DNA of 62,167 nucleotides, the filler included, from Hausera hauseri (taxonomy: Eukaryota): assembly GCA_046269625.1 (NCBI GenBank). It is 12 parts of 12 records of this genome, joined end to end, with 100 filler letters (N's around TTAATTAATTAA, not from the genome) between each part and the next. Parts side by side here need not be neighbours in the genome. Positions count along the whole stretch, not along the records: positions 15,993 to 20,365 come from JBJURY010611888.1; 11 more parts are not named here. One strand, given 5' to 3'. The notes under the pieces are model-generated. The model worked only from the letters and a program-made list of their open reading frames with translations, was not told the origin of the DNA and did not search any database. Positions 1 to 54,062 of this stretch are shown here, piece after piece (the first letter of the stretch is position 1; each line of letters opens with the position of its first letter). The position numbers and the translations under genes are program-made.

Positions 1-165
1 TACCAAAAAAACCCTACATTTTCTATTTTATTTTAACCTTACATTGACTTCATGGCAAAGTGAGGATTAAAATTACCAGACTCTCCAGTTACTGCGTTTA
101 AAGTGCTTTCCTAAATCACATTTTCTTTTTCAAATTAGAAACTAAAAGGCACTATGCTGTCCCAC

Positions 166-375
166 CTTGTGTGGGTCTTCATTGGGGTGTGGGTGGAGAC
201 CTGCAGCACCACGCAGTAATTTCAGCAGCAGCTGAGAATCAGAATCAGAGCTGAGGAGCAGAGATGGAAGGTAGTGGGTGCTGACGTATCCCAGAATGCT
301 CTGGTACGAGGAGAGGTCAAGTCGGTGCCAGGGCAGAGCGGTGGACTGAACCAGCAGACTGAGCAGAGGAGCGTC
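166..375 (-). CDS. epg5: Ectopic P-granules autophagy protein 5, internal exon (vertebrate, probably teleost)
   Basis: 210-nt exon between a ttcag| acceptor and a |gtggg donor. Translates [41 protein letters not shown]...[10 protein letters not shown], which matches the vertebrate EPG5 segment as I recall it (DSPLLSLLGQTSSLSWHLVDIVSYQSVLSY). Confidence 0.85.
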
Positions 376-455
376 CTGAAGGATGAAGATAAATAACGTG
401 TTAAAACGAATGAATTTAGAGATAAGACACTCGATTCTGGTTTATCTGAACTCAC

Positions 456-680
456 CTGTTTACTCAGGAGTTGCTCCTCTTTTGCCAGAAAAACAAGCAT
501 GTACAGCAGATAGACCAACATGGTGTGGGACTCCTTCTGCGTCGCCGCGTCCGTCAGAGCGGGATATGTTGTGGAGCCGGGAGGTGTTTGTAAGTGCTCG
601 CTCAGGACGCTGACCCAGTTCACTTCACACATCAGCTCTCCCATGAACAGGAAGCAGCTCTTGGGGCTGCCTCGCTCCAC
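456..680 (-). CDS. epg5: EPG5 internal exon (vertebrate, probably teleost)
   Basis: 225-nt exon with a polypyrimidine tract + tacag| acceptor and a |gtgag donor. Translates [27 protein letters not shown]...LAKEEQLL; the recalled vertebrate EPG5 motif is [27 protein letters not shown]. Confidence 0.9.
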
Positions 681-744
681 CTGTAGGCAAAGAAAAACAC
701 AAAATTAATTTTATACCGAAGATAAGATAATAGATAAGCACTGT

Positions 745-2057
745 TTGTCAGACACTGAACTAACCTCCGTTAAAGAATTTAAAGTTCCTCCTAGAATTAA
801 AGTAGATAAACCGAATAAAATAAAGATGGCAGCAGAGAACCCGGCCGTAGCTCAAAAATTCGACATATTTATGTTCGATTCCTTGAATTTACCAGCATAC
901 TACGGTGACCCTGACGGGTTAAATGACTTTTTACAAACCTATAAATTACACGCAGAAGGTGCCAGTCTTGCGCCAGAAGTTATGATTAAACGACTGCCTT
1001 TATAATTGAAAAATCTGGCTGCAGACACCTATAGTGAACTCACTAATTATGAGAAGAAATCATGGTCCTCTGTAGTAGGAGCCCTAAATCGTAAACTGTT
1101 GCCGACGGTGACACCACAACAGAAGCTTATGGCCTTTCAGAATAGAACGCAACAAAAGGGTGAGTCGGTTACTCAATTCGCATTCGCACTAAAGAAGCTT
1201 GCTAATAGTTACGTAAGTACGTTAAGGATAGCCAATGCGGTAAAGGCGAAGACAGACGCAAACGCGAAGTGGCAGAAAAGGCAAGTCCGCTAGATTTATA
1301 TGTCATGATGACAACTCAGTTAATAAACGGTATATGGTCTAGAGATCTAGTTAAGCATCTAATTTTAGCTCGACCAGATAATTTCGAGACTGCATTACAG
1401 TTAGCCCAAAACTTAGAAATGGCATTAGATAGATACGCTAGACAGAGCGATAGATATAATGATCGCGATGATCGGGATAGGAACCGAAACAATAAGAGAT
1501 TTAATGGTAATAATAAGGACCGAGGCTATGAGAATAGAGCTCAAAATGCCCTTAATCGCAACACGAGATATGATAATCGGAATAATAGTTGAAATACATA
1601 TAACCTTTATAACAAAACAGGTTATAATCCGGATCGAAACCAGCATAATGATCGAAGTAATAAAAACCGATATATAGAAAATCGGAATAACGGAATCGAC
1701 GGGCAAGCACAAAATAAAACACTAGGTAGACCAGAATCGCCAGTGAATGAAGACGGACGACAAAGGGTCGGCCGAGACGTAAACCTGATTTGTTATTCAT
1801 GTGGCAAGGAAGGTCACATAGCTAGATTATGCCCTAATCCACGGAGTGTATCATTTGCAGAGACTAGTAAAGCTAGCATGATAAAAGATAATTTGGAAGG
1901 AATCTACGGAAAACGAGGTGACATAAGTATGATTATCGAGATGCAAGACTTACGAAGGTATGTAAGGAATATGGGTGAATCTAATAATCTACAAGTAATC
2001 AAGGCTAGGAAGGAGTACGAAGAAAAACTGCACCAAATGAAGTTTATCTTGGGTTAA
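745..2057 (+). pseudogene. gag: Ty3/Gypsy-like Gag (capsid + CCHC nucleocapsid), disrupted
   Basis: PAYYGDP, RLPL*LKNLAADTYSEL, MHR-like NRTQQKGESVTQFAFALKKLA, QLINGI...PDNFETALQLAQNLE, and zinc knuckle CYSCGKEGHIARLC (~1790-1831). Contains in-frame stops and frameshifts. Confidence 0.85.
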
Positions 2058-2059
2058 GG

Positions 2060-5000
2060 GAACCAAAAACGGAGTACGAGAAAGCTATAGCACCTAAGAA
2101 TACTAACATGGCAAGGAAGAAAAATTTAAATCAAGCAACGGAAGAGGAGAAAGAAGAAAAGTCGACTACGTCTTCAAGTGTAGACTTGGACGCAGATACC
2201 GAGATCGTGTCTCAAAATAAGGATAAAACAACAGACGAGGTTGAGAGTGAATTCATTGGGCCATTAATACTCAAGATAACTAAGAACAGAGGTAGAAGTC
2301 ATTCTCTTAGGAGAAGGTCGGGAACTTGTTCACGATCCCCAATTAAAAAGGATTTAGAAAAGAAGGAAGACTTTATCATCACTTTAAGAGATAAAATAAA
2401 GTTAAATACTACTATAATCCAACATGTTCCGGAAACAACAAATATTCCGAATATCGATGAAATTAATGAAATATGTCCATTACCACCTAGTGAAGAGGAA
2501 TCAGAAGAGGAGAAATATATCAAATTTGGGAAGATTACAAAATTTTGGAAAAATGCAAGGGAACTAACCAAAATAAGAGACACACTGAACGATCCCGAAA
2601 GACTACACGAGAGCCTGCAGAAACTCCAGCAGATGAGTAAGCAGTTAGATACCTCCGGAAAAGAACAACAATTCACAGAGAAGCTATATAAAAAGCTTAA
2701 ACCCGGTTCGCAGAGGAAGGAAGAAAACACACCTTACAAACTGCAAGAAACGTCACAAGACTTGATAGGAAGTTGGCGAAATAATTTAGAATTGTGGACA
2801 AGGAGTGAGATTGATTTTTCGAAAATATGGTGGAATAGAAACGAGCCATTTCTCAAACAAATAAATCAAGCACGCGGACTATTAAGCATACTAAAGGATA
2901 ACCCAAAACTAAAACTCATAAGACGTAATTTAGAAGGATTGATGTATGAGATTGAAGAAGCGATAATTTCTTATCTTCATAACAAGCCAGTATACAAACT
3001 GACTAATGCCGACTTAGAGATATTGAGTATAGACCAAATCGATATTTCATTTCTAATAGAAATGTGCAGCTTAATAAAGGATAAACCTCGGAAATACCCA
3101 GGTTTAAAAATACGTATTAAAAGAGAAAATGAAATACGAGCCAAAATTAACGACTTAAAGATCGGTATAGTTCACTTTGAAAAGGCAAAAGCACAAAGAA
3201 TAATACGTGCTTGTCTTCTCGAATTAGATGAGTATAGAGAAGTATTCAACTACATGAAACATATTATAGAATTTATACGAAAACCAGATCACGAACTAAA
3301 AGAAGCCCTTGAGACATTGGACGAAATAATCTACACCAAACCGGCAATATCCAAACAACTAAAAAAGTGGATGGACTTGTTACCTTTAATAGTAGGGATA
3401 ATAAACGAAAGACTAAGAGAATTCGCAGTGGCTAAGCCCATAATGATGCACCAATTGGAGGAGATGTTACTAGATATCGGTACGATGGAAGAGGAAGCCA
3501 AATTGTGAATTAAATTAGAATCGTTCCGAGAACTTAAATTTAGGAGCAGGGATCAAGATCAAACCACACTAATGGAGATATATAATATGATAGAAGAAAA
3601 GGAGTTCTACGGAAAAAGAAATAAACTAAGTGATCTTCATCGAAGTTTAGCGACCACCTGCTGGGAAGGGATACAAAACCTAATGCAGAAACAATGAAGG
3701 AAATCTCAGCACAGGAAATAGAAACACTGTAAGTATGTAACGATCAGCGGATTATTCTAGCACAAACACTACAATATTTACAGAATCCAGCAGAATGGAC
3801 ACCAGGTTTCGATCTACATTGCCACACAGAACTAACAGAAATCAGGAAGGATCTCCAGTTGACGGCCGACGAAGCCAAGTTCATGGGCAGGCTAATGGAT
3901 GCAATAGATCCAGACGCTAAAGTATTAAACCAGATGCACACATTAATCCTATTATCAACAGAAATGGCAGAAATTGACGAAGTAGTAGCCAAGCAACTAA
4001 CAAATCGAATGCGTCTGGTAAAAGAAACCCGGTTATGCTCCTAGAAAAGACAACGCGAGCTTAACGAATTACTGAGAGAAACAGAAGTTTACAAGAACAA
4101 GTATTCCCTTACGGAATCTGAAATAAATAACAAAACGGAATTTGTACAGAGATGGCAAAGAGACAGGATCGCAGAAATGACTAGTTATCGGGAGAGAGCT
4201 CTGATACAACCAGAAGAAATGTGCCGATTTATAACATTGATACAACACGCGTGTGGAAACGGAGATGGATATATTGTGTAACCGTAATGAAAATATTGCA
4301 ACCGCAACTGAGAGAACTACGCGAAAGAGTCCAAGTAGGACACGCGGCATTAACGAATTGCAAATTACCTGACGCGGATAACGACAACGAGTGGGATGAA
4401 TACCTGGAAGGTTTAAACAAACAGAGTCACAGAACCCCGATACAAATTTATGAGTCACCAGTCGGTATCCAGAAAACGAAATTTGATGTGCAAATGTTAC
4501 TTGACCCCATACTAACAGAAAAAGAACTCGGCGACGTACTGAAAATATACATAAGGGACGACAGATTGAAGAAATTGATTCCAACCTTAACTAAATTATC
4601 TAGTGAGAACAGTGCATACAGTGCCGTTCCCAAGCTCCTAATAAGAGAATACGCTAAACGTTTGAGAAACAAACCAGAAGCGGAGATTAAGGTGAAAGTA
4701 TCCTCTGAAGAGATGGATGATGAGGAATTCGAGTGCACTACTTATATTACCGTTGCAGATATAAAACAACGAATAATAGACAAGGGTAGTAAAGAAGCAG
4801 TTAATTATCGGCTCTATTTCAGGGGCAGAATATTAAATGAGTTAGAATCCGTAACAGACGTAGGGATCATACCCCACAAAAAGAATCGAATAATAGCAAT
4901 AATTGTTAGTGAGCAAACCAAAGATGAAGGTATAAGGAAAGCACACACAGAACACTGGGTTGGAAAAATCATGTGGATTCAGCACGCCGAAAAGTACTTT

Positions 5001-5600
5001 AAATACTTACAAATGGATGACGACAAACCCCAATACGATAAAAATCTAGTACCTCTAAGTGAAATTTCATAACCAACGAAACCGAAACGACCGGTCTGAA
5101 GACCAAGGAAAATAAAGGAAGTGGACTACAATACAGATCTGATTAGAGAGTTAAGACAACTATCAGTACCCACGTAGAGTTCAAATAACGAAGAATTAGT
5201 TGAGTTAATAAGAGATTTAATATGAATAGTTAATTATACCGTTTTACAAGGTGATATACTATCCGAGAAAGAAAAGCTAATATATAATGTAGCACGGACA
5301 ATGAAAACTTCGCGATTCAAGTTATATAAAAGTACCCTTTCTGATGAAGTGGTAATTGATCGGATTATGATAGATAATACAACGGAAGAATTGAGGAAAA
5401 TCTTGATATATTTAACGATTATAACTGACCCCTTCCGAGAAAATGAAATTGAAAGATCATATGGGTTAGCTAGAAAGGCTGCAAACAGGGTACCTAAAGA
5501 AATAAAATGGACTACACTATTCGAAAAGGATGTCAACGGGAAAAGAGCAATAACTTAGAAGATATGGTACGAAACATCTCTTCGAGTAAAGGGAACGAAT
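2060..5600 (+). pseudogene. ORF-X: large, probably helical protein of unknown function with ubiquitin-like domain, copy A
   Basis: ORF pieces 2108-3508, 3859-4044, 4221-5072 and 5301-5558 join into one frame when compared with copies B and C (e.g. TGA at 3506 is CGA in copy B). Ubl-like segment at ~4686-4905. Confidence 0.75.
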
Positions 5601-6217
5601 CCAATGTGTTAATAAATCTACTCACAATAATGATGTTAGTGAAGCAGATGGGAACAGTCACCATATACGACTGTGATACATTTAAAGTGGGTCAGACGTA
5701 CCACTGATAAACTTAGAATCCTGTAAAGACTCAAGACGCCACAAACTGGAAACGACAGAAAAGAAATATATACTGTATAAACAACGAGAACTAATCGCAA
5801 TGGATGCTATGGAAAACATGATTCGGAGGTCTGGTAGCATATTCTATTGTGGTAATACGCACGGACACTTTTCAATAATCAAATCTACCACACCATTGAT
5901 ACCAATGAATGTGGACAGACAACGTTGCTTAGGAGCTCAATCAACCGGTAAAATGATCTGAGACGGCATGGAGTTGGAAGCTCAAGAAGGAAAAATCATT
6001 AGAGCTTATAAAGTGGCAGTAGGAAAGTTAAATATGCACACCCGTTATTGCGCTGGAGCCGAATATGATACGGGAAAAGGAAAACAAGGAGGAGTAGTAG
6101 TTGTAGATTTTTACGAAACCGAGTTAAGATCCTTAAAGTCAATGTTTCACAGTGTCACTAAATTATTCACTGAAAACCAAAAATGTCACATCCAAGATGG
6201 TGCTTGCACGTTCCGAA
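5601..6217 (+). pseudogene. env: Chuvirus-like envelope glycoprotein, N-terminal part, copy A
   Basis: Hydrophobic leader LINLLTIMMLV, then VTIYDC, FYCGNTHGH and CHIQDGAC; cut by the contig end. Confidence 0.75.
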
Positions 6218-6317: not shown

Positions 6318-6615
6318 GGATGTTTTTGGGAGTGCGTCGGGGTAAGGTCCGGCGATATTTTCTGTTACAGGTGTGTTTCTCCAGGATGCGGGATAGTGTT
6401 TAGGGCATCTTTCTCATGTTTAGTGACAAATAAGGGGCGATATTTTCTGTTAAACTCACGTTTCTTAGAGTGCTACCGGTGATTTTTGTCGGCTTCATCA
6501 CGCTTGGGCGTGTCTTTGCAAGCGAATCGGGGTAGGGCAGGGCGAGATTTTCTGGTAAAGTCGCGTTTATTAAGGGTACTGCCGCGGGTTTAGGTCGACT
6601 TCATCGCGTTGTGGA
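6318..6615 (-). repeat. Inverted block of the 105/84-bp tandem repeat
   Basis: Its reverse complement matches ~7810-8010 (tcgacctaaacccgcggcagtacccttaa...aaacgcgactttaccagaaaatctcgccctgccctaccccgatt). Confidence 0.9.
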
Positions 6616-6819
6616 AGCCATTGTATGCGGCCAAACATTGGAGTGTTGGACTCGTCGGATAAGTTTGGTAATATTTCTGTGTTCGTCTAAGCGGGCGATA
6701 AAATGTGAAAAATGTTGGTAGATTTTTTTACGATACGCATTCGCTGTTAGAATAAACATGTGTATAAAAAATGTGCTATTTTCCTTATGAAATGTTATAA
6801 TAATATTAAATATTACAAG

Positions 6820-7130
6820 ATTCATCCGCCATTTTGCTTCAACCCTCTGACTTTGCCTACTGAATTCATATGAGCACGCTTCCTGTTCCGGCTTCTTCCG
6901 CTTGACTTTGCCCACGTGGACCATTCAGTCGCCATCTTGCATCCACCCTCTGACGTCAGCTTCTGACACCACTTGACCCCACTTCCCTTTCTGCCCTCTT
7001 CCGCTTGACGCTGCCCCTGTGGACCATTCAGTCGCCATCTTGACTTCACCATCTGACGTCACATAACTCCGTTCCCCGCTCTTCCGCCTGCCTTTGACCA
7101 CAAAAATATGGCCTGTCACTAAACACGAAG
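6820..7130. promoter_or_regulatory. Triplicated ~104-bp unit rich in YY1, CRE and ETS-like motifs
   Basis: CGCCATnTTG at ~6827, 6930 and 7033; TGACGTCA at 6951 and 7054; CTTCCG at ~6895, ~6998 and ~7081; CACGTG at 6913. Function is inferred from motifs only. Confidence 0.45.
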
Positions 7131-10100
7131 AAGACCCCTTAAACCGCTCCTGCATCCTAGAGAAACATGCTCTTAATAGAAAATATCCCCCTTGCCTGTC
7201 CCGACTCACTCCCAAAGACGTCCACAAGCGCGAGGAAAGCTAGCTAAACCAGCAACTGTACCCTTAAGAAACCCGATATTTACAAACAAAATATCCCGCT
7301 TCCGTGTCCCGATTCACTCGCAAAGACACGCCTAAGCGCGATGAAGCGGACCAAAACCATCGACAGCACTCTAAGAAACGCGAGTTTAAGGGAAAATATC
7401 ACCGCTTACGTGTCCCTAAACATGCAAAAGTTGCCCTAAACCACGCCCGCTAACATAAGAAACGCGACTTTAACATAAAAAATGTGTCCCCTTAATGATC
7501 GACATCGCCCTAAACACGATCTAAACCACGCCCGCGTCCTTGAAGACACACCCGTAACAGAAAAAATCGCCGTTCCTTACCCCGACTGGCTCCCAAAAAC
7601 ATGCCTAATCGCGAGGAAGTCGACCTAAAGCACCGGCAGCACGTTTGGGAAACACGCCAGTAACAAAATCTCGCCATTGCTTACCCCGGTTCGCTCCAAA
7701 AAACACCGACAAACGGTATGAAGTCGACCTAAATCCCCAATAGAACTTTAAGAAACCCAACTTTAACAGAAAATACCCCCACCCATGCCCCGACTCACTC
7801 GCAAAAACATCCGCAAGTGCGAGGAAATCGACCTAAACCCGCGGCAGTACCCTTAAGAAACGCGACTTTACCAGAAAATCTCGCCCTGCCCTACCCCGAT
7901 TCTCTCGCAAAGACACGCACGAGCGCGATGAAGCCGACCAAAACCACCGGCCGCACTCTAAGAAACGCGACCTAAATATCTCTCCTTACTTGTCACTGAA
8001 CATAAAAAAGATACCCTAACCACGCCCGCAACCATAAGGAAGGCGACTTTAACACAAAATATGTGTTCCTTTAATGATCGACATCACCCTAAACATGACC
8101 TAAGCCACCGGTAGCTCTCTAAGAAATGCGACAGTAAAATATCACTGTTCCTTACCCCGACTCGGTCCCAAAGACAGGCCCAAGCGTGATGAAGCCGACC
8201 AAAACCATGGGCAGCACTCTAAGAAACACGCTTGTAACAGAAAAATATCGCCCCTTACGTGTCCCTAACCATACAAATGTTGCCCTAAACCACGTAATAA
8301 ACGGGATTGTAACATAAAATATCGCCGTTCCTTACCCCGACTCGGACCCAAAAACATGCCCAAGCGCGACGAAGTCGACCTAAACCAGCGACCTTAAGAA
8401 ACCTGACCTTTACAAAAAAATATCACCGTCCTTGTCCCGACTCGGTCCCAAAGACATGACCAAGCGCGATGAAGCAGACCAAAACCATCGGCAGCACTCT
8501 AAGAAACACGCCCGTAACAGAAAAATATCCCGTTCCTTACCCCGACTCGCTCCCAAAGACCTACTCAAACACGAGGAAATCGAGCTAAATCACCGGCAGC
8601 ACACTTGAGAAACGCGCCCGTAACAGAAAATATCGCCGTTCCTTGCCACGAATCACTCCCAAAAACACCGAAAAGTGCGACAAATGTCAACCAAAACTAC
8701 CGCGACACTCCAAGAAACACGATTTTAACAAAAAAAATACCCCCGTTCATGCCCCGACTCGGTCCCAAAGACATGCCCAAGTGCGCGGAAGCTAACCAAA
8801 ACCAGCGGCAGTACCCTTAAGAAACGCGCCTGAAAAAAAATTCGCGCCCTGACCTACCCCGACTCGCTCCCAAAGACCTGCTCAAACGCGACGAAGTCGA
8901 CCTAACCAGCGGCAGTACCCTTAAGAAACGCGACTTTGCCAGAATATCTCGCCGTTCCTTTCCCCGATTCACTCCAAAAAACACGTCCAAGCACGAGGAA
9001 ATCGAGCTAAACGACCGGCCGCCCGCTAGAGAAACGCGAGTTTAACATAAAATTTTGGCCCTTACTTGTCCCTAAACATGCAAACGTTGCCCTAACCATG
9101 CCCGCAACCGTAAGAACCGCAACTATAACAGAAAATATCGCCGTTCCTTGCCAAACTCGCTCCCAAAAACACATACAAGCGCGAGGAAATCGAGCTAAAC
9201 CAGCAGTATTGCCCTTAAGAAACGCGACTTTACCAGAAAATCTCGACCTGCTCTACCCCGATTCACTCGCAAAGACACGCATGAGCGCGATGAAGCCGAC
9301 CAAAACCACCGGCCGCACTCCAAGAAACACGCCCGAAACAGAAAAAATATCACCCTTTACTTGTCACTAAACATGAGAAAGATACCCTAACCACGCCCGC
9401 AGCCATAAGAAACGCGATTTTAACACAAAATATGTGTTCCTTTAATGATCGACATCGCCTTAAACATGACCTAAACCACCGGTAGCCCTCTAAGAAACGT
9501 AACTGTAACAGAAATTCTCATCGTGTCTTACCCCGATTTGCTCGCAAAAACTCCCACAAGCGCGATGAAGTCGAGCTAAATTGGCGGCAGTACCCTTAAG
9601 AAACACGAGTTTAACAGAAAATATCCCGCTTCCGTGTCCCGACTCGCTCTAGAAAACACCCACAAACGCGACGAAGTCGACCCAAACCCCCGGTAGCCCT
9701 CTAAGAAACGTGACTGTAACAGAAAATCTCGCCGTTCCTTACCCGGATTCGCTCGCAAAGTCACGGAAAAGTGCGAGGAAGTCGACCAAAACCACCGGCT
9801 GCGCACTAAGAAACGCGAGTTTAAAAGAAAATATCTCCCCTTACGTGTCCCTAAACATGCAAACGTTGCCCTAAACCACGCCCGCAACCGTAAGAAACGC
9901 GAATTTAACAGAAAATATCACCGTTCCTTGCCACGACTCGCTCACATAAACACCCACAAACGTGATGAAGCCTAAACCACCACGAGCACTCTAAGACTCA
10001 CCCGTAACAGAAAAATATCCACTTACATGCCCACTAAATACGACCTAACCACCGAACGTAGCCATAAGAAACACGCCCTTAACAGAAAATATCACCCCCA

Positions 10101-10180: not shown

Positions 10181-10770
10181 CCACTCCTCACGTCACCTGC
10201 CGATACCAAATACAGTACCGATACAAAGACACGTCACCACCACAGCCCCTTACTGCATGTAATTAAAGAAATTACGTCATCATAAAAGAATGATGATGAA
10301 GAAAAAACCCGCTGATTCGGCCTTAGTCACGACCCTTACCCGGACAGGATGGCTGCCTCGCTCTTACAAAACATAATTATACCATAATTACCTAATTAAA
10401 AACAATTAATTAATTACCGNNNNNNNNNNNNNNNNNNNNNNNNNNNNNNNNNNNNNNNNNNNNTTAATTAATTAANNNNNNNNNNNNNNNNNNNNNNNNN
10501 NNNNNNNNNNNNNNNNNNNAAGGTTCCCGTGCCCTCCAATTCTCCTCAGCACGCCGCAGTATCTCTTCAGGCGAACAGTACCGTGCATCATGTAAAGGTC
10601 GATCAAGATTGTAAAGGTGACTCCGGAGATCGTCTGAGGAGTGATACAAACGAATGAGTTCTGTTGAATGAGACATGTTGTAATGTCACGACGTAACGAA
10701 GCCCAAGTATTTATACTGAAATAAATTATATTGATTCACGAAAACAAACATAGCAAAATAATATATGTGA

Positions 10771-11013
10771 TTAAATACGGTCAATCAACTTTTCCATTAT
10801 AATACAAAGCGAAGCAGAAAATACAAGTCCAATTAGGAAATTAATCCGTCTTTGTTGTTGCCGTTTTCGTCTCATTTCATATTTGATACGTTGTATGAAT
10901 AGAGATCTGGCAATTAATTCAATACATTCCCGTCGGCTAATTATTCTGGTTTCTGCAAGCTCACACAAAAACTGAACATCAAACACATATCCAGTCAAAA
11001 TGTCATCGGTCAA
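10771..11013 (-). CDS. Small hypothetical protein with C-terminal hydrophobic helix (possible Polinton accessory ORF)
   Basis: 80 aa; basic stretch followed by INFLIGLVFSASLCIIM; lies upstream of PolB. Confidence 0.3.
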   Translation of the reverse strand: MTDDILTGYVFDVQFLCELAETRIISRRECIELIARSLFIQRIKYEMRRKRQQQRRINFLIGLVFSASLCIIMEKLIDRI

Positions 11014-11257
11014 ATTCTTAATATCGCTTTCAATGTACTATTCCATGTGATTTTAGTTGCTATTGTTGTTGTTGTTGTTTTAGCGTTTAGAATAATTGTT
11101 TATAAGGGAGTAAAGAGACCTTTTAATAAGTTCTAGTATTTGTAACTTAATATCAAACATTTATTTTATTTTGTTTTTTATTCAGCAGAAGTGCAATCAA
11201 TATATAATGTATTGCGTCACGCGCATACATGTGAATGAGGAGCAGTGACATCAGCAG

Positions 11258-11539
11258 ATGGCTAAATATTACTCCGTTGGAAGGGATACATATTTTTGCC
11301 CAAAGTGCTGTAGTATTTCGGGCTCTTGTCCTTACCCAGACTTTTATGCGATGCAAAAGCATCATCTTGGTTCGTTTACGCGGTCGAAGAAGATGATGAT
11401 TGTGCATTGCCCCACACATCCACGTTACTGTACTACTAAGGTGCATGACGTTGAGGGTTGCCACAGTATAATGGAGCAGTACTATGACACCACAACGGAG
11501 CACGGTAAACGGTCTACGTTTGTTCCGTTTGTTCTATAG
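11258..11539 (+). CDS. Small Cys/His-rich hypothetical protein (possible Polinton accessory ORF)
   Basis: 93 aa with ATG start, CPKC, HH, CPTH and CH; directly upstream of PolB on the same strand. Confidence 0.35.
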   Translation: MAKYYSVGRDTYFCPKCCSISGSCPYPDFYAMQKHHLGSFTRSKKMMIVHCPTHPRYCTTKVHDVEGCHSIMEQYYDTTTEHGKRSTFVPFVL

Positions 11540-11554
11540 TTAATGATATCAACT

Positions 11555-14500
11555 ATGAACAATTTAATATTCAGCACAAGGACTACTTTAACCAGTTTCA
11601 GCGGTCCAAAAAGGAAATAGGGATAGTTACAAAAAATACCAGTATCCCCTCAACAAGCAGGAAACGTTAAGCATCCACAAATCTTGACGAATACATCCGA
11701 AACGGTACCGAACAGCAGCAGCAGCAGCAGGAGCAGATGCAACAGCAGGAACCTTTTAGTACTGTCAAGTACAATCTAAGCAAATCGTATGTGGACGTGA
11801 AAGTAAACATGTCGGAGACAACAACGCTACAGCTGAGACATGTTTCGTCCAGTGTGCGCAGCCGGTTGGAAACAAAACTGGAGAAATTCAAACACCACAA
11901 CTGCAAAGTGCAATATTACGGACTTGCAGAGTTTGAAAATGTACAGGGCAACAGGAAACAATGGTACCTGTCACATCGAGCTGTATCATGTTCGGAGGAT
12001 TTTATCGCAGCGGTAAGTGAGAAGCTCGATGAGAAAATCGCCTACCACACCGAAAAGGGTAGTGACTGGCGAATTATAAAAATTGTCACTCTCGGTTTTA
12101 TCCTAACAAAGTCGAGTGACATAATTTACCTGTCCTGGTGATCATTCATACCGTCTCCTACACCTCTGCAGCATTCACATGTAGTAGTGAATGTTAAAAA
12201 TACTGACGACGAATACGGTTTTCTTTACAGTATTCTAGCTGTAATAAAATATGACCAAGTGGTCAGCCATAGTGCAAATCGTCCAAATCAGTATCGGCAG
12301 TATTTTTTCGAATTGGATTTCGATGAGTGGTGGATGCCGATGAAAATAAAAACCATTTCGGCTTTTGAACGACGTAATCCAACACTGGCAATAAATGTGT
12401 TGCGGTACAATACAATAATACAAATACCGGCAAACGAAGAGCTACATAAGAACCCTCACGCGGACATAATTTATCGAAGTCGGAACGCAAGTGGACGCCC
12501 AATATACTTGTTACTGCTGGAGCAAAAAGAAAAGTTCCATTACATGGCAGTGACCAATTTGGACCGATTGTTGAATATGGATCACTGTCAGTTTGTCCAA
12601 AAGCGTATACAATGTAAATGGTGTCCTGTATGTCTTCACGGTTTCAGGTCAAAAACAACATTGGAGAAACATGTGACGCTGTGCAAGCACAATTCAATGG
12701 GATCAACCATGTACGTCACGCCACTCAAAAAGGAGCTCCGATTCAATGATTAGTCGAAAACGGACAGTCCGGCATATGAGGTATATGCCGATATTGAGGC
12801 AATTCTACCACAAAGCATGTATGATCAAAAAAACGGTTCAATCACTGTTGGTATGTTGGTTGTCCCAATAAAAGCGATCGGTCAACCGCAGTATTACATC
12901 TTTCACTGTTGGAACTGTGTACGTGATTTCCTGTAGCGTTTGGATGAGATAGTAGAAACGGAAATCAAGCCGTGATATCGCAATAACAGCACAAAACCCC
13001 TGATTTTGACAGATGAAGATGAACGCCTGAAGTTTGCAGTCACAGATGAATGTTATCTGTGCAACCACAAAATATTACCGTTTGATGCACAGAAACGACT
13101 CGTACCGGATCACGATCATTTCGCGAGGCGTGTTCGGCCATTTCTATCAATGATCTTTCATAATTTCCGAGGTTATGGCTGTCAACATATACTCAAATGG
13201 GACATCAAGGGATTTCCGCACTGGGAACTCTCCATAATCCCAACAACAATGGAGAAGTACTTGTCCCTCTCAGCACGCATAAACCGGTTCCATGTACGCT
13301 TCCTTGATTCATTGCAATTTCTCAATGAATCACTGGAAAAGCTGGTAAACGCCTTGCCGGATGTGACAATAACCTCAATGCAGTTCCCCACACATATTTG
13401 ACGCAGCAAAAGCATATTTCCATATGACTTTGCAACATTGTATGAGCGACTTCAGGCAGCATAGAAATTACCGCCGCGATGGACAGGCATCAGGGAAGAT
13501 GAATATCGGAAAGCACAAGAATCTTGGACAGAACTCGGCTGTAGAAACATGTTGGAGTACATGCTCCAGTATCTCATACTGGACGTGTACCTGTTAGCCG
13601 ATGTGTTTCAGGTGTTTCGGACGAAAGCATTGGCTGAAGATAGGCTGGAGTCACTCAACTTTTATTCCATACCGGGAATGAGTTAGGCGTCAGCTGTAAT
13701 GTCATTGGATCGAGACATTGAGTTTCTGAAAGATCCGGAAATGTACCGGCTTTTGATGTTCGTATTCGCGGTGGCATGACTTTTGTCAACACGCATCAGG
13801 TCAGCGCCGCCGCCGCCGATACCACATCACTGCTGCATATTGATATTAATAACCTGTACTGCTGGTATCTTGAAATCGACCTTTATTCGCAACCCTTTCT
13901 GTACAATTCATTTGAATGGGTAGTCGACAGACAAGATCTGGACGATATAATGGTCACCCTGCCATGAGCATACATGGCAGGCTCAGTCGGATCTCGAGAT
14001 ACCAGATGAGCTGCATGACGTTTTGGACAATGTGCCGGTCGCACCATTTAACTAATGTCCTCCAGGCTCAAAAGTGGTGAAACTACTCAAGTCGCATGAA
14101 TCCAAGCTAAATTATATGGTCCGTTGGCGTCTGCTACAGTTCTACATGCAGCTAGGCGTCCGCGTCACACAGCTGCATCGTGCAATAAGCTTCAATCAGG
14201 CGCCAATATTCAAGGCGTACATTGATGGAAATTCAGAAAAACGAGCCGCAGCTTGTACAAAGTTCGAAAAGGACTGTTACAAGCTCAAAAATAATTCACT
14301 GTACAAGAAAGAGTGGAAAATTTGAAGAAGCGGCTCAATGTGCGCCTGTGCAAAAACGAAAAGCGGCTGGTTACATACACCAGCAAGGATCAATTCAGGC
14401 GGTCAATGCACATTGCCGATGGATTGGGTGAAGTGCTGTTAAACCGGGAAGAAGTCGTTCTGGACTGGCCAAGCTACATCGGACAAGTGGTATTGGACCT

Positions 14501-15050
14501 AATCAAGTTGCGAATGTACGAGCTTCAGTATTGAGACTTGGCACGTTACCGGTAAATGTTCGACGGCTGTGAGATTAGTATCGTTTCCGGTGACACAGAC
14601 AGCTTTTTCCTTGAGCTGAAAAACATCAATCAAGACCAGCTGCTGCGACAAATGATAACAGATGGACTACTGTACACGTCAAACTACCCATTGGACCATC
14701 TACTGTACAGCAGCTCAATAACAAACAAAATTGGCTGTTTCAAGGACGAAAGTGAAGGCCGGGTTCAATACAGGAAATGTATATTTTTGCGCCCAAAGTG
14801 CTATAGTCTTCTGACGGACTGTGGGTCGAAAATGCGGGCAAAAGGCATCTAGCTGAAACAGAAGGAAATAAATCACGGTAATTATCGTCGGGTCTATGAT
14901 GAACAAGAAGAATAAAAAGGACGAGGAGGAAAGGCTCTTGTGTCTCAAACGACCACACGATCGATTGAGCACCAGCTGTATACGGTAGCGAATAAGAAAG
15001 TCGTTTTATTATGCAATAATAATAATCGAAAGTGGGTGGGGCGAATAAGA
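11555..15050 (+). pseudogene. polB: Protein-primed family B DNA polymerase of Polinton/Maverick (adintovirus-like) type, fragmented
   Basis: Ordered motifs: KGSDW, VNVKNTDD, FERRNP.LAINV, HYMAVTNLDRLL, YADIEAIL (ExoI), DHDH, IFHNFRGY (ExoII), RFLDSLQF, IFPYD, DVYLLADVF, IRGG, DINNLY, KLKNNSLY, GDTDSF, FKDE, LRPKCYS, AKGI. Confidence 0.93.
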
Positions 15051-15992
15051 GTTGGGCGTACGGACGTTGGCGTTTTGAATAAAACACGCTCACACACAGA
15101 TGAAATCGGTGCAAACAGATCAACTGACTATGACATTTTGTTGTGATCTGTGTTTTATAAATAATGTATAATGTTCATTGTTTTTCCTTTTGTTTTATTA
15201 TTTTATTATCATTTAATGTACCTTTATATTTATCTTAATGTGACGAGAAACAATATGATAAAAAAAGCAAACAAAACCAACGAGGAGGAAAGGCTCTTAT
15301 GTCTCAAACGAAACTTTCCCAACTTCCATATTGGTGATTTAACGCCATGCAGATCCTTGTATCCTTTCAATTTCAATGTTAGATTACCTTTAGATCCTTC
15401 CGGTGGCAAAACGACATTTGCTGTTGCTGCTGTGGTTTTTCTATAGCAATGTAAACTGACAATTTTCGCCATATTTCCTTTGAGAAAAATCGACTATGTA
15501 TCTCGGATATTGTTATTCAACGCAAATCACTGTCAACTTTTCTAATTATGTCTTTTATCGTATCCAAATCATCGTCGCTAAACTTTTTCACAACTAGACC
15601 ATATTTCACAGATTTGATTTTGACCGTTTGCATCAATGGAAATTGAATAGCGTTGCGCAGATAATGTAAATTGTATCCATTATACAACTAGGAATTTCTG
15701 AGCGAATATTCGCTGCACCGTGGCTTTTTTGAGAGACTGTCATCACCTGCTAAATTTTTTTCAACCAAAGTCATGGTTAGAAAAAGACAAACGTGAACTG
15801 AAATTGCAACTCTATTTATCATTGCAAACAATAAATATTTAGTTTGTAAGTATTGCCTTATATTACAATGATACAAAATACCTCCATGTTACNNNNNNNN
15901 NNNNNNNNNNNNNNNNNNNNNNNNNNNNNNNNNNNNTTAATTAATTAANNNNNNNNNNNNNNNNNNNNNNNNNNNNNNNNNNNNNNNNNNNN

Positions 15993-18264
15993 ACATGAAA
16001 CATATTATAGAATTTGTACGATGGCCAGATCACGAACCAAAACCAAAAGAAGCTCTTGAGACATTGGACAAAATAATCTACACTAAACCGGTAATATCCA
16101 AACAACTAAAGAAGTGGATAGACTTGTTACCTTCCATAGCAGGAATAATAAACAAAAGACTGAGAGAATTCGCCGTGGTTGAGCCTATAATGAGACATCA
16201 ATTGGAAGAAATGTTACTAGATATTGGTACAATGGAAGATGAAGCGAAATTGCGAATTAAATTCGAATCATTCCGAGAACGTAAAATTATAAGCAAGGAG
16301 CAAGACCAAACGACACTAACAGAGATATATAGTATGATAGAGGAAAAGGACTTCTACAGAAAAAGAAACAAGCTAAGTGATCTTCAGCGAAGTTTAGCGA
16401 ACATCCGTTGGGAAGGGATACAGAGCCTAATGCAGAAATCGCTGAAGGAAATCTCAGCACAAGAAATAGAAACATTAGAAATATGTAACGATCACCGAAT
16501 TGCTCTGGCACAAACACTACAATATCTACAGAATCCAGCAGAATGGACACCAAGTTTTGACCTACATTGCCACACCAAACTAACGGAAATTAGGAAGGAC
16601 CTTCAGTTAACGGGTGATGAAGCCACGTTTATAGGCAAGTTAATGGACGCAATAGATCCGGACGCTGAAGTATTACATCAAATGCATAAATTAATCCTAC
16701 TATTAACAGAAATGGCAGAAATTGACGAAGTAGTAGCCAAACGGCTAACAAATCGTATACGTCTGGCAAAAAAAACCCGGTTACGCTCCAAGAAAAGACA
16801 ACGTAAGCCAAACGAATTACTGAGAGAAACAGAAGTTTACAAGAACAAGTATTCCCTTACGGAATCTGAAACGAATGACAAAGCAGAATTTATACAGAGA
16901 TGGCAAAGAGACAGAATCGCAGAAATGACTAGTTATCGGGAGAGCTCTGATACAACCAGAAGTGTGACGATTAATAACATTGATACAACAAGCGTGCGGA
17001 AATGGAGACGGATTTAAGATATCCGTAATGAAAACATTGCAACCACAAATAAGAGAATTATGCAAGAGTCCAGGTCGGACATGCGGGACTAATGAACTAC
17101 GAGTTACCTGACGCAAAAAACGATGTCGAGTGGGATGAATATCCCCAAGGTTTAAACGAGCAAAGTCAAAGAAATCCAATACAAATTTATGAGTCACCCA
17201 TTGGTACCCAGAAGACGAAATTCAACGTGAGCAATGTGTTGGAAATAAGTATAAGTGAAGATAGGTTAAGGAAATTGATTCTAAACTTGACCAAACTATC
17301 TAGTAAAAACACCGCACACAGCGCTGTACCCAAGCTCCTAATAAAAGAGTATGCTAAGTTGCTAAGAAATAAACCAGAAACGGAACTTAACATAAAGGTA
17401 TCGTCCGAATGGATGGACGACGATAAAATTTGAGTGCACTACCTATACCACTGTTGCGGATATAAAACAATGGATAATGGATAAGGATGACAGGAAAGGA
17501 AATAGTTATTGGTTATATTTCAGCGGTAGAATATTAGACGACCTAGAATCCTTAATAGACGTAGGGATTATACCCTTCGAGGAAAATCGAATAATAACAA
17601 TAATCACCAGTGAGCAAACCCAAGACGTAGCCATGAGGAAGGCACATACAGAGCGTTGTGTTGGAAAAATCATGGGGATTCAGGACGTCGCAATGTATTT
17701 CGAATACTTACAGACTAATGACGTCAAACCGCAATACGATAAAAATTTAGTTCATCTAAGTGAAACTTCACTACCGAAGAAACCGAAACGACCAGTCGGA
17801 AGACCGAAAAAAGTAAAAGAGATTGATTATAACGCAGACCTAATTAGAAAATTGAGACAACTATCGGTACCAACCCCGAGTTCAGATAATAAAGACCTAA
17901 TTGAGCTCCAAGGCGACATATTATCCGAGAAGGAAAGACTAATATATAGTATAGCCCGGACAATGAAGACTTCGCGATTTAAATTATCTAAGAGCACCCT
18001 CCCTGACGAAACAGTAATTGACAGAATTATGATAGACAATACGATGGAAGAATTAAAAAAAGTCTTGATATATATGGCAGTAAGAACTAACCCTCTCCGA
18101 GAAAATAAATTCGACAAGACAATTGGGTTAGCTAGAAAGCTGCAAGAAGGGTACCTAAGGAAATAAAGTGGACTAAATTGTTTGAAAGAGAGGATAAAAA
18201 AGAGACTAATAAGTTAGAGGACATGATCCGAAATATCTCTCCGAACAAAGGAAACGAATCCAAT
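15993..18264 (+). pseudogene. ORF-X C-terminal part with Ubl domain and AT-hook-like motif, copy B
   Basis: Closely homologous to 3252-5600. Ubl at ~17387-17605; KPKRPVGRPKK at 17780-17812. Confidence 0.8.
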
Positions 18265-20200
18265 TGGCTAATCAACTTGCTAACAATAATGATACTGGTA
18301 AAGCAAATAGGAGCCGTCACTATATACGACTGCGACAAATTCAAGGTGGGTCAGAAATATTCCTTAATGGACTTAGAAACATGCGAAGATGCGAGACCTC
18401 ATAAGCTCAAGACAACAGAAAAAAGATATTTATTATATCAACAACGTGAATTAATCGCAATTGGTGCGACGGAATGCATGATACGGAGATCTCGTAGCGT
18501 TTTTCATTGTGGTAATATGCACGGCCATTCTTCTATAATCAAACCAACCACCCCATTAGTCCCAATGAATGTGGATAGACAGCCCTGTTTAGGAGCCCGG
18601 TTAACCGGTAAAATGGTTTGGGACAGCATGGAATTGGAAGCCCAAGAAGGGAAAATAATTAGAGCCTACAAAGTGGCAGTAGGAAAATTGAACATGCACA
18701 CCGGTTATTGTGTCGGAGGAGAATATGACACAGGGAAGGGAATAGAAGGAGGAATAGTAGTTATAGATTTTTAAGAAACCGAATTAAGATCCCTAAATCG
18801 ATGTTTCATAGTGTTACGAAAATATTCACCGAGAATCAAAAATGTCACATCCAAGATGGTGCTTGCACGTTCAGAAGTTCAGTAGTTGTATGGAGCCCAC
18901 CTTACGAGAGATTGTAATTTCATTAAAATCAGAGTTAAAGTTTAATGAGACAACCGGAAAACGTTATACAAATAAACTACACACAAATACTAAATCAAGG
19001 GAAGATGTAGTGGAACATCACACACCAACGATATTGATATCGGTGCACACGGATTAAAGTTCATCAGAAAGGAGATGTTAACACGCTGAGATGTAATTAT
19101 GCATGCCACAAACTACGAAGCATTTTTCGTAGCAGAAACCGAAATTAACATGAAAACGTATGATTTGAAAACGCAAGACATACGAATCTAGGATTACCTC
19201 AAAAATCGAAACGACTATTTCTATTACAAAGGACAGACCGGAATAGCAGAAATATACCACAAAATAATAACGAATGACTGCAGATTAGATACCGAAGTCA
19301 TGAGAACCAAACTGGCCTTAATTTATACCAACCCAGAACTGGCATCACCAATTATACCAATGAAAGAAGGTGTCTTTGGACAAGTTACTGAAGAAGTCCT
19401 ATTAACTTACGAATCTGAAAAAAGGGACGTGCTGATTAACGTGGAAAAAAAGAAGATGCATGCAAGAATTACCAGTCATCTACGAGAATATGCCAAGACT
19501 AGCAAACCTATATTTCAAAGTAGCGGAACCGACTGGATAAGTTTACCTAATGGAGGCGCTGCTACAGCCCCCAGTAAGCTAACTGGAACAAATTTAATAA
19601 AAGGATTATCAGAAGAGAAGTTCGAGGACACGGCTAATAAAGGAATCTATAGGCCAAAAGACAGACGCTTTTAGGCAATTTTTATCATTTGCACGACAAA
19701 GAACTTATGAACTGAATCAAGCCATGTCAATGGTCATGGATGACACCCGCTTTCAAGCAACATGGTAATCGTTACTTGGTGCTAATATCTATCAAAGAGT
19801 AACTTCAGAAATATTATATAAGATTTGGGGAAGATTCCTAATTTTTGGACCAGCCGCATCGGGATTCCTAGCCATTTATTTTCTAGTCCAGCTAATTAAA
19901 GCAGTAATCCAAGATGTTATAAACGGATATGAAATATTCACATTAACAGGATTTTCCTGCAAACTTTTGACTACAATTATCACACCCTTCGGGAAAATGC
20001 TCAAGGCCTACAAAGAAAACCGATGGAAAAATGACGTGGAACGCCACGTCGAGTATTATAATCGCAAACGACGAGGGAGGCCCTCAATTCTCAATAAACC
20101 TTGAAATAAGAAGGCAATAATACGAAAGGACGATTCAGATGATGACGAGCCTAAGGGAGGAAAAGTAAGTTCCAGAATGAAGATGCACAATATATACTAA
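18265..20200 (+). pseudogene. env: Nearly full-length chuvirus-like (class III) envelope glycoprotein, copy B
   Basis: Leader + YDC..YSLMDLETC..ECMIRRSRSVFHCGNMHGHSS; CHIQDGAC; NDCRLD..KLALIYTNPE..GVFGQVTEEV; CMQELPV; KGIY; membrane region IWGRFLIFGPAASGFLAIYFLVQLIK...NGY. This motif order follows chuvirus G and the env of Anakin-type Pao elements. Confidence 0.82.
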
Positions 20201-20465
20201 GTGATCAACGCATGATTACCCATCATTTCGCCGACAGCACCGATATATGAAGACTGCGACCTCAAATCAGTCGTATCATGTAGGTCCGAAATCTATCAAA
20301 AGCCCATTAATTATGAAGATCCTTATGAAAAAACAAAACAATATGGAGTACTACGGAAAATGAATNNNNNNNNNNNNNNNNNNNNNNNNNNNNNNNNNNN
20401 NNNNNNNNNTTAATTAATTAANNNNNNNNNNNNNNNNNNNNNNNNNNNNNNNNNNNNNNNNNNNN

Positions 20466-23065: not shown

Positions 23066-23129
23066 TTGGATATCTTTCTACATTTACGGCGCATTGGATA
23101 AACTGTATAGCTGAGGGACCGAGCATGCC

Positions 23130-25729
23130 CGCCCCCGCTGTACTGCATCCCTTTTCTCTTATTTCCAATAATAAACGTGTACATATTGAGGGTTGCATAC
23201 AAACATACTAAACATCCTTTATTGTGCATTGTCTTCCTTTTTCAGCTCCTCCGATTTTTATTGCATGCACAATGGGCTAACTCTTACCTTCCGACTCTGT
23301 CATTTTTTGCATCCAGGAAACATTCAATGATTCTTACTATCCATTTTCGTATCCGTAGTGGATCAGACCCTGACCCTTCTGCCGAAAACTTAACTAAAAC
23401 CAGATCTGGTTGTCGTCCTGCCGACCCCACACCGATTACATCTCCAAATCTTTCTTGCAGTTTTTTTCTCGACAAGACTAATTCGAGTCGTACATGGTTA
23501 CAATTCCATTTGCAATGGATTAAAGCCAATTATATCACAGACTCCTTTTTGCGGGCGAACAGTTTGCTGCTACTACTTCCAGCTAATATCAAGCTGCAAA
23601 TCAACAATCTTGCTGACATACTTTTTTAAGTCCATATGATATGCTTTATGAATCAGTTCTGCATATCACCGACCTTTCCATTGACAGCATAATTCAGAAA
23701 TTCTTTAACGAACATGCCATCGGAAATCAAAAACCATCGGATTTCCTGAAAACTGCAATAACTCAACTGAGTTTGTTAAGCGTCACTGCTATAAAAAATG
23801 CCCATCTTTGTCGGTATTTTCTTTTATCCTTGCCGACCTCCTTCAGAGCGCTGCTCACTGTAATAGACGACTCAGCGGCCCATGAAAAGCTCGCCTTATT
23901 AGCAGACAAAAGCTTTGACATTTTGAAATCTAATAGTTCGCAACCAGTAACAAGCAACCGCTCACACACAGATAACATTTCATTTTCACAACAATTGCAA
24001 ATGATGCAGCAACCGTTTGACGATTTTGGCCATTACTACCCAACTATATCTTAATGGGCCTCGACGGAGCGAGGCATTTCCAGACACTGTTCGATCCATT
24101 TCACCTGGTGGACGAATGACATGTTTCTATCGCACGCGACTTTGAAGGGATACTAGGAAATGTTTTTTGGGTTGTCGGTTCTACATCGAACGGTACGTTG
24201 TGGACAACCCCATTTGCGTCTATCACAATAAGTTTCAGTCACGGGCTTGATCATGTGTGCCTGGTTGTAAATATTACAACGATAAATCTTGCTTTTCCTC
24301 CTCCTCTTCCTTTTCTCCAAAATCTTCAAAAAATTAGTACCGCCGCCAGATTTTACGGCACATTTTGGCGCAGGCAATATCGCTCAATCTTCTGGTCGTT
24401 TCAACACCGCCTCTGAAGTTTTTCTGTTGAAAGCTGTACTGTTATTTAGAGATACTTCACATATCGACTTCCTTATAGACTCAGGAGCTGCCTTTTTGCT
24501 CCTTCGGTTGTCCTTCGTTTCTACATCGGCTGATTTCCTGTCCACTGTTTTTCACTTCTAGTGGTCAACCGTTGAGCGTTGCTGGAACTACGGAATTGAC
24601 TTTCACATTCGCCAACTTGCCAGATAAGTTTGACTAGAAGTTCCACGTGGCCAACATTAAATCTCTTATAATGGGCCGCACATGATCTATTGGTCGATTG
24701 CAAATACAGCTGTCTTTTAATCTGGAACTCAATTGCAACTCCAAACATGTCTCGTAGACAACTTAGCGAGTAATTCACTGCACTCATCTATGAACCTGTT
24801 GAACGCTTTGTCATTTATAAAAAAACTTCCGATGAAGTCGCCAATATTTCCATTATGAACGACAATTATAAATCTATCCTAATAAAAAATTCAAATTAGA
24901 CGTCGACTCTAGCGATGCCATCTGCTTTTCGTCAATCACTGGAACTGTTCTCTCTAATGATATGCCTCATTCATTCTTATCTCTAGACTCCGATCTTAAA
25001 TCATACGTCACGTCTTGCTTTCGCATACTTAAAAGGGACGTCAACTTCAAGCTTCCGTCCACAACTTATCATCACAGTAACAGCATCAGAGGCCGATCAA
25101 ACAAAAGATCAGACCTTTGTCGCAACACAGACGTAAAGCTGTGGAACAGGATTTTAATGAACTGGAAAGGTCTGGCATCATTCGGAGATCGATTTCACCG
25201 TGGGCTTTTCTTCCTGTGGTGGTAAAGAAAGATGGTACCTATAGGCCATATGGCGACTATCGACTATTGAACAATCTAACTATTACTGATGCCTATCCAC
25301 TACCACTCATTAAACATTCTTCATGGCCTCAACAACACCAATACTTATTCTACCATTGATCTGCACAAGGCCTACCATCAAATTCCTGTTGCTCCTGATG
25401 ACATTCCAAAAACTGCTGTCATCACACCATTTGGCCTTTCCGAATACATATTCATGCCTTTCGGCCTACGTAGTGCATCTCAGACTTTTCAGCGCCACAT
25501 TGACACTGTTATTTCTGGTCTTGATTTCGCTCACCCATACATAGATGACATATTAGTCGCTTCCAGCTCCATCACACAACATCATAAGCACCTTAGAATT
25601 ATCTTCCACAGATTGTGTCAAAGCAACCTGCAAATTAATTTCGCCAAATGCAATTTCTTCCAGAATCGCGTCAACTACGTAGGCCACAATCACTCCCGAA
25701 AGGCATTCTCCCCAGCCCGATCGCTTACA
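23130..25729 (+). mobile_element. Ty3/Gypsy retrotransposon: 5' leader, gag, protease, RT (truncated, decayed)
   Basis: Gag IGNQKPSDFL, LP...RALL...LALLAD and a decayed CFY...KC...C knuckle; protease FLIDSGA; RT GDYRLLN, IDLHKAYHQIP, MPFGL, YIDD. Homologous to 49564-54062. Confidence 0.92.
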
Positions 25730-52963: not shown

Positions 52964-52965
52964 TG

Positions 52966-53800: not shown

Positions 53801-54062
53801 AAGAAAGATCGGGGTCCGATTCACTCCGAAGGCGAAAATGGAGAGTGAGGTGAATGATTTGGGAGGAAAAGAAAGAAAGTTGGTCATGGACGTTAAGTAT
53901 AGGGCCATGATGCGAGAGATAAAAGTCTGAGGAGTGGAGGAGGAAGGATAGATGCGTGTGAAAACGATGTAAAGTATCTGTGTGTCGCATTGAAAGTATA
54001 GAAGTGTATATTATTGGAAAAGACAAACAGGGATAAGGGACATGGTGCAGCGGGGGTGGTCA

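Follow-up and report, generated by a model that had tools for sequence, protein, structure and literature searches.

A decayed Gypsy-type element of Hausera hauseri with a class III glycoprotein gene behind Gag and ORF-X and a predicted internal signal peptide

The gene order Gag-Env-Pol with an in-frame env is already published for flatworm elements. According to the accessible parts of its description (PMC6431247), planarian Burro/GYPSM1 consists of one ORF with Gag, a Ubi/SUMO-like domain, BCL2, Env, PR, RT, RH and IN. Its Env is related to mononegavirus fusion proteins and was called the first in-frame env between gag and pol, and decayed copies are known from Dugesia japonica (same passages of PMC6431247). 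The available passages of PMC13524379 report the GAG-ENV-POL order with a gB-type ENV from flatworms, nematodes and bryozoans. They also list 114 gypsy elements whose glycoprotein is the chuvirus-like one of Pao elements from mosquitoes. The gB-type ectodomains described there have a membrane helix on each side, or a signal peptide on one side and a membrane helix on the other. Non-canonical nematode ERVs (Sacco et al. 2022, cited in those passages of PMC13524379) are described as metaviruses with ENV before POL and an RNA-virus glycoprotein. These passages hold no discussion of release by signal peptidase, and a literature search that reached few subscription papers found no account of such release in elements of this kind.

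The wider question is by what route an enveloped retroelement with a single ORF can produce a fusogen in the lumen when Gag and Pol, on either side of it, are cytosolic. Here, a glycoprotein locus was analysed in a window (the whole stretch of DNA under analysis, 62,167 nucleotides) from genome assembly GCA_046269625.1 of Hausera hauseri. The locus adds a diverged, very repetitive and decayed family; its gene order and its glycoprotein were already known.

Copies of the element and their coding regions

The contigs of the window are joined by N/TTAATTAATTAA linkers. The three copies counted in a preliminary description of this DNA were recovered as homologous sequences, each on a contig of its own (A and B on the plus strand, C on the minus strand; Table 1). 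Copy B, the stretch under study, is 79% identical in DNA to copy A and 69% to copy C. In one public run (X1), 9881 contigs match copy B, most of them at 80–95% likeness. By these matches the element is a large, diverged repeat family, summed depth not being equal to copy number. The contigs of this run are short; none of those listed spans the stretch, and the join of Env to Pol was not seen in them. A scan for close loci gave none in 600 metagenome stretches and none in 470 genome stretches. None of the three copies is intact and none joins Env to Pol; B and C stop 260–330 bases past the membrane region. The window copies are dead and originate from diverged, once active subfamilies.

Table 1. 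Positions of the features in the window, counted along its whole length.
Feature	Position	Strand	Basis or remark
Copy A contig	1-6217	+	sequence comparison
Copy A Gag, one CCHC knuckle, two frames	826-2057	+	ATG at 826; zf-CCHC above cut-off
Copy A ORF-X, leader (5606-5656) and Env N-terminus	2009-6217	+	ended by contig end
Copy B contig (stretch under study)	15993-20365	+	sequence comparison
Copy B ORF-X, three frames	15995-18139	+	long helical part, ubiquitin-like domain, presumed AT-hook-like motif, helical domain
Ubiquitin-like domain in ORF-X	17420-17569	+	Pfam PF00240, E 3.4e-6, 27.2 bits (cut-off 25.4)
RPVGRP motif	17789-17806	+	no profile match
Helical domain before leader	17828-18180	+	all-helical, model pLDDT 41; position is that of the Bcl-2-like domain of relatives
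Frameshift splitting ORF-X body from leader frame	18135-18139	+	copy B only, not in A or C
Met before leader	18223-18225	+	14 codons upstream in copy B; possible alternative start
Internal hydrophobic leader WLINLLTIMILVKQIGA	18265-18315	+	12-residue hydropathy 2.48 (relatives 1.94–3.45)
Predicted signal-peptidase cut	after 18315	+	-1 Ala, -3 Ile; leader anatomy
Class III fusion glycoprotein ectodomain	18316-19825	+	PF24664, six of six N-terminal Cys, trees; damaged by frameshifts, stops and a deletion
YDC	18325	+	copy B motif
KYSL	18355	+	copy B motif
CMIRRSRSVFHCG	18475	+	copy B motif
MHGHSS	18517	+	copy B motif
GYCVGG	18703	+	copy B motif
C....G.C	18843	+	copy B motif
DCRL	19276	+	copy B motif
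GQVTEEV	19378	+	copy B motif; the site described earlier as GEV-like
ELPV	19466	+	copy B motif
GIY	19642	+	copy B motif
WGRFLIFGPAASG	19826	+	copy B motif
Membrane-proximal region and transmembrane helix	19826-19909	+	hydrophobic stretch 19853-19909, mean hydropathy 1.91
Cytoplasmic tail	19910-20365	+	frame continues to contig end; stops at 20102, 20198 and 20213; PTAP at 20231
Copy C contig	58105-62167	-	ORF-X part, leader 60083-60033, Env, together at 58105-62166

The broken glycoprotein gene of copy B covers 18316-20100 in all. The motifs listed for it beforehand were all found, in order, except P.TR.L, which copy B has lost in a deletion near 19504 and copy C retains at 58835. They are spread over three frames. 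Frameshifts lie near 18794, 18906-18932, 19045, 19450, 19504 and 19664, and stops at 18772, 19087, 19189 and 19766. Two of the six pieces of copy B matched Pfam PF24664 at 54 and 60.6 bits (cut-off 27); a middle piece reached 26.6 bits, below the cut-off, and three short pieces gave no match. Copy C scored 123 bits and copy A 36.8 bits against the same cut-off. A family profile made from 30 relatives was run on six frames of the window and gave 11 matches at E<0.001, all within the three copies; reversed or shuffled DNA gave nothing better than E 6.4. Given the PF24664 scores and the silence of the family profile on reversed and shuffled DNA, the glycoprotein signal of copy B is not due to chance. 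Conserved Cys columns (n = 14) were kept at six of six N-terminal positions in copy B and at four of five C-terminal positions in copy C, the three middle columns lying outside the rows used.

For the identification of relatives, the C-terminal half of the copy C Env was compared with 1.84 billion representatives, which yielded 318 matches at E<=0.001. An earlier word-based search with this half among longer proteins (0 of 2455 candidates) was overturned by this result. Among the best 20 of the 318 matches (numbered P0001 and so on), 13 are Envs within longer ORFs, six are fragments of 203–492 residues, two of them covered by the Pfam scan, and one is a standalone G. Pfam assigned a protease domain in frame downstream of Env to 11 of the 13, in one case weakly (E 0.0018), and RT and RNase H as well to five. 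In 11 of the 13, the ORF has 127–1343 in-frame residues ahead of Env, which agrees with the earlier claim of a leader internal to a polyprotein; Gag or a knuckle was found there in P0007, P0012 and P0020. As read from these domain assignments, the nearest relatives carry Env inside Gag-Env-PR-RT-RH-IN polyproteins.

A single-sequence search of the PDB returned nothing useful. When a profile of 102 relatives was used, 35 of the 37 PDB sequences at E<=10 were herpesvirus gB (best E 0.0011). In place of the broken window gene, relative P0006 (33% identical to copy C) was modelled with AlphaFold (pLDDT 80). The model matched Tacheng tick virus 4 G at E 1e-42 and HSV gB at E 2e-13 in Foldseek, with TM-scores of only 0.3–0.4 to gB. 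The Env is a class III (Monjiviricetes-type) fusion glycoprotein, the evidence for its fold coming by way of this relative. The chuvirus-type class III fusogen of the preliminary description is upheld by these HMM and structure searches, in which similarity to both chuvirus G and herpes gB was found and not an absence of similarity.

Copy A has the order Gag, about 1,170 codons of ORF-X, then Env, and a profile scan found no protease, RT or integrase between Gag and Env. That a Gypsy-type Gag lies upstream, as had been proposed, is confirmed by the zf-CCHC match; the Retrotrans_gag match (E 0.006) stays below its cut-off. The Gag of copy A also matches that of polyprotein P0008 (E 1e-10). ORF-X of copy B is 70–80% identical in amino acids to that of copy A, with dN/dS of 0.18–0.27. 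Its ubiquitin-like domain was matched in copy A as well (PF00240, E 2e-4), with no match in copy C. Motifs similar to RPVGRP, which we take to be AT-hook-like, occur upstream of Env in P0004 and P0007. A word-based protein search with ORF-X gave 0 of 1792 candidates, which is weak evidence. For the helical domain before the leader, no profile or fold match to Bcl-2 (hhalign probability 0.2%) and no usable match in the ESM Atlas were obtained.

In three hand-picked relatives (P0001, P0006 and P0014), a Bcl-2-like domain ends 35–75 residues before the Env leader. Its best Pfam match has E 2.5e-5, below the cut-off, and its match to Bcl-xL has E 0.001. The leader of these three proteins could double as the membrane anchor of the Bcl-2-like domain.

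Leader, ORF-X/Env junction and release of Env

The leader ends three residues before YDC, the same spacing as in the N-terminal signal peptides of tick chuvirus G. At the homologous cut site, 18 of 19 proteins have a small residue (A, T, G or S) at -1. Position -3 of the predicted cut is Ile or Met in the window copies.

In-frame ORF-X codons before the leader had been described for all three copies. This was found for copy C, which runs from the region of the ubiquitin-like domain into Env in one frame with three point stops (60683, 60299 and 60200), but the bodies of ORF-X in A and B are split off by frameshifts (in the linker near 5545 in A, and at 18135-18139 in B). About 58 codons are in frame upstream of the predicted cut in copy B. 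In run X1, 16 contigs have a sequence other than that of copy B at its break. Upstream of the Met, codons are conserved in the leader frame (pN 0.09–0.22 vs pS 0.77–0.85; 14 and 21 codons), and the junction codons on both sides gave pN 0.09–0.28 and pS 0.77–0.90 in the same frame (small samples of 14–35 codons). The codons upstream of the leader are under purifying selection in the leader frame. The different breaks of the copies, together with the conserved codons before and after the junction, make a single frame likely for the active ancestors. A programmed frameshift at the junction was considered and rejected, as the breaks sit at different places in each copy.

The reading that we prefer, and hold with fair confidence, is that of a Ty3/Gypsy-type element with the order Gag-ORF-X-Env. 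Pol probably came next, in what was probably a single polyprotein, and Env would be freed from it by a predicted signal peptidase cut at the internal leader. The anatomy of the leader makes release by the host signal peptidase likely. Gag and ORF-X would be made in the cytosol. The leader would then bring the ribosome to the ER and pass the ectodomain into the lumen. Signal peptidase would cut before V-T-I-Y-D-C on the lumenal side, out of reach of the element's cytosolic protease. Because this cut would be lumenal, no viral protease would be needed at the ORF-X/Env junction, while the element's protease would still be needed elsewhere. The helix at 19853-19909 would halt transfer and leave the downstream part (PR-RT-RH-IN in relatives) back in the cytosol, where Pol would stay on the Env tail until the element's own protease frees it. 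The Gag-ORF-X half would be kept at the membrane by the leader stub, and Env may trimerise and fuse membranes by analogy with gB or chuvirus G.

Processing may further resemble that of alphaviruses or flaviviruses. Gag and a ubiquitin-like/Bcl-2-like cargo would sit on the leader stub and Pol on the Env tail. Capsid, enzymes and fusogen would then share one membrane, Pol would be packaged via Env and not as Gag-Pol, and a PTAP/YPxL motif past the Env tail would recruit ESCRT for budding. This extension is tentative, and we lean somewhat against it. For the preferred reading, the leader conserved across relatives, with its small -1 residue, sets out a membrane topology and a cleavage site that is precise and testable. 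If these are right, the assembly route would be unlike those of retroviruses and Drosophila errantiviruses.

Several points weigh against the polyprotein reading. ORF-X and Env share a frame in only one copy of three, and the Env-Pol join is seen in no copy. No Bcl-2-like domain was detected in the window, the motif typical of the clade (see below) is not kept, and the window rows are long branches in the trees. A single ORF would yield equal amounts of Gag, Env and Pol, which is unusual for retroelements and argues for extra spliced messages. Lastly, all three copies have a Met ahead of the leader, with a purine at -3.

This Met, overlooked in the preliminary description, would be the start if most Env came from a separate message, spliced or internally started, the link to ORF-X then being confined to the genomic message; we consider this unlikely. 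Drosophila errantivirus env is made from its own (spliced or internally started) message. The Met is present at 18223 in B, 5564 in A and 60137 in C, 34–38 residues before YDC and with G at -3, and a separate message would remove the problem of equal amounts. However, no shared pyrimidine-rich acceptor was found upstream: the 15 nt before each YAG have a pyrimidine fraction of 0.2–0.6, which is a weak test in A-rich DNA. Selection in the same frame also extends upstream of the Met. At the same place P0003 reads EDMVK and P0004 ENLVR, and the Met may be a structural residue. No Met lies 60 to 19 residues before YDC in five of 12 relatives (P0001, P0004, P0008, P0014 and P0019), so in these five the leader cannot be N-terminal on a long ORF. 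As far as sequence can tell, the small -1 residue and the lack of a nearby Met in these relatives favour an internal, cleaved leader.

An uncut leader acting as a signal anchor is equally unlikely in our view. Env would then be a two-pass loop on Gag-ORF-X, or would be freed later by another host protease. The Ile or Met at -3 is less typical than Ala, Ser or Thr, and gB-type ectodomains with two membrane helices exist (available passages of PMC13524379). Yet tick chuvirus G, whose leader is N-terminal, has the same distance to YDC and likewise a small -1 residue, and the hydrophobic core of about 12 residues is short for a stable anchor. A search of the copy B ectodomain pieces for a furin site (R-x-K/R-R) found none.

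Region behind Env and placement among relatives

Local alignments of copy B to P0001 and P0002 reach into the tail stretch 19910-20365. By its sequence, the stretch behind the copy B Env is likely a linker towards a protease lying off the contig. A Pol-less, non-autonomous Gag-X-Env derivative that depends on a helper element would fit the lack of Pol on all three contigs and the three stops behind the Env tail of copy B. We find it more doubtful than the two alternatives above: all three contigs end too early to tell, and what follows Env looks like the linker that joins Env to the protease in relatives. In addition, an unlinked Pol contig of the window (39178-43553) shares the tail layout of relatives and is similarly repetitive in run X1 (7781 contigs vs 9881).

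On this contig (+ strand), the frame of a Gypsy Pol (RT, RNase H, integrase) continues into a second signal peptide, an ectodomain, a stalk rich in Thr and a membrane helix. The ectodomain has a C-x-x-L-x-P-x-T-x-Y motif at 43133 and no Pfam match; it is presumably FN3-like. The tail layout is that of P0002, P0004 and P0151. The contig is possibly the unlinked 3' half of the Env family studied. As a proven part of the same element it was rejected, its tail similarity to relatives being weak (E about 0.01–0.4).

Other elements were seen elsewhere in the window. A decayed region of a protein-primed family B DNA polymerase lies at 10520-15892 (+; PF03175 E 1.8e-5, endonuclease VII-like E 0.012) and is, we assume, Polinton/adintovirus-like. 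A satellite of about 105 bases occupies 6400-10100 on both strands. Two copies of another Gypsy family, env-less in appearance and 71–83% alike, lie at 23100-25729 (+) and 49564-54300 (-) and have Gag, protease, RT, RNase H and integrase. Gypsy Pol fragments at 46168-48311 (+) and 56440-58004 (-) are 34–43% identical to the Pol of the polyprotein relatives.

Copy B has a PTAP motif behind the Env tail, at 20231. A scan with no chance control found PSAP or YPxL-like motifs ahead of the protease, past the Env tail, in six of 13 proteins (P0001, P0002, P0007, P0008, P0012 and P0019). All these motifs resemble ESCRT late domains. At least two aspartic-protease-like repeats stand in a row behind Env in P0004, P0007, P0012 and P0151; the last, a protein of 4844 aa, has a C2H2 finger and ankyrin repeats as well. 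P0002 (HBK71150.1), a Gag-Env-Pol polyprotein, is annotated as a hypothetical protein from a Flavobacteriaceae MAG and is likely animal DNA in a bacterial bin.

Trees were built with 73, 34 and 32 of 280 proteins. They are unrooted, hold no herpes-, rhabdo- or nyamivirus rows, and sample only two named chuviruses and one Pao-type row. The C-terminal half of copy C groups with all 13 polyprotein Envs and one standalone row (support 100/99), and the N-terminal part of copy B with 11 of 11 polyprotein Envs (support 99/97). FastTree with 73 references placed the window Env inside the polyprotein group (support 99). Branch lengths of the window rows are high (1.8 and 1.2), and the nearest relatives of these rows are only 33–34% identical to them. 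The motif [VIL]YQE[ST] is present in eight of the 13 polyprotein relatives and in none of 60 other G proteins; it is not kept in the window copies. Judged from these trees, the window Env nests among polyprotein Envs and apart from the chuvirus, Pao and insect proteins sampled. We consider it very improbable that this element recently captured a chuvirus glycoprotein in a separate event, or that its gene derives from Pao/Anakin. Chuvirus and chu-like G do give the best structural matches when viral models are compared, and Chuviridae G reaches E 1e-16, but polyprotein Envs score far better (E 4e-51), forcing copy C into the chuvirus/Pao/insect group (named post hoc) costs 61 log-likelihood units (p-AU 3.5e-6), and no Pao-type Pol precedes Env in copy A. 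Because the trees are unrooted, the direction and number of captures are not readable from them. The independent capture suggested earlier stands in part: in the trees, Env does not descend from any Pao or chuvirus protein that was sampled, but the event is not new, Env being inherited within a Gag-Env-Pol polyprotein clade whose layout is published.

Comparison with described elements

Chuviridae G and herpesvirus gB share with the window Env the Cys pattern, the fold as modelled for a relative and the spacing from leader to YDC. Unlike the window Env, viral G has its own ORF and an N-terminal signal peptide, and identity is about 27% to chuvirus G and 10–13% to gB. Anakin Pao elements and Jingchuvirales glycoprotein EVEs belong to the same glycoprotein family, PF24664 (PMC7642597 and PMC10084718, in the parts available). 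As far as those parts describe it, Anakin differs in its BEL/Pao backbone, in the position of G behind integrase (in P0028, DUF5641 then G) and in lying on another branch of the G tree. Neither the grouping of G expected for Anakin or a recent chuvirus EVE nor a Pao-type Pol upstream was found; copy A has Gag and ORF-X upstream of Env and no Pol.

With the non-canonical nematode ERVs, as characterised in the passages at hand, the likeness (ENV before POL) is one of description only. These ERVs reportedly have a continuous gag-env-pro-pol ORF.

The GAG-ENV-POL errantiviruses, including Smed_errantivirus_1-6, have the same gene order and Env class as the window element (PMC13524379, available passages). 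Read by eye, [VIL]YQE[ST] is found in five of six Schmidtea (Smed) ENV rows of supplementary file 2 of PMC13524379, as far as that file was available. As this motif is common to both, the clade that holds the window Env is tied to the Smed elements in the part of the source at hand. The window copies differ from the Smed errantiviruses in being broken and in lacking the motif, and the likeness is by way of the clade motif and not of a direct alignment.

The nearest comparison is with Burro/GYPSM1, as far as the accessible parts of its description go. Both have Retrotrans_gag with a CCHC knuckle, a long intervening region, a ubiquitin-like domain and then an in-frame Env. In contrast to the two or three knuckles of Burro/GYPSM1, one was seen in the window Gag; no MATH, BIR or ankyrin match was found in the ORF-X pieces scanned, and the window contigs end before any Pol or LTR. 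On the kinship of the element alone, its host is likely to be a flatworm. Of the features expected of a Burro-like element, Gag upstream with no Pol in between, an in-frame Env, a place in the polyprotein-Env clade and a ubiquitin-like domain were found. By gene order, domains and trees, the window element is no newly found capture, but a decayed new addition to the Burro-like GAG-ENV-POL Gypsy elements.
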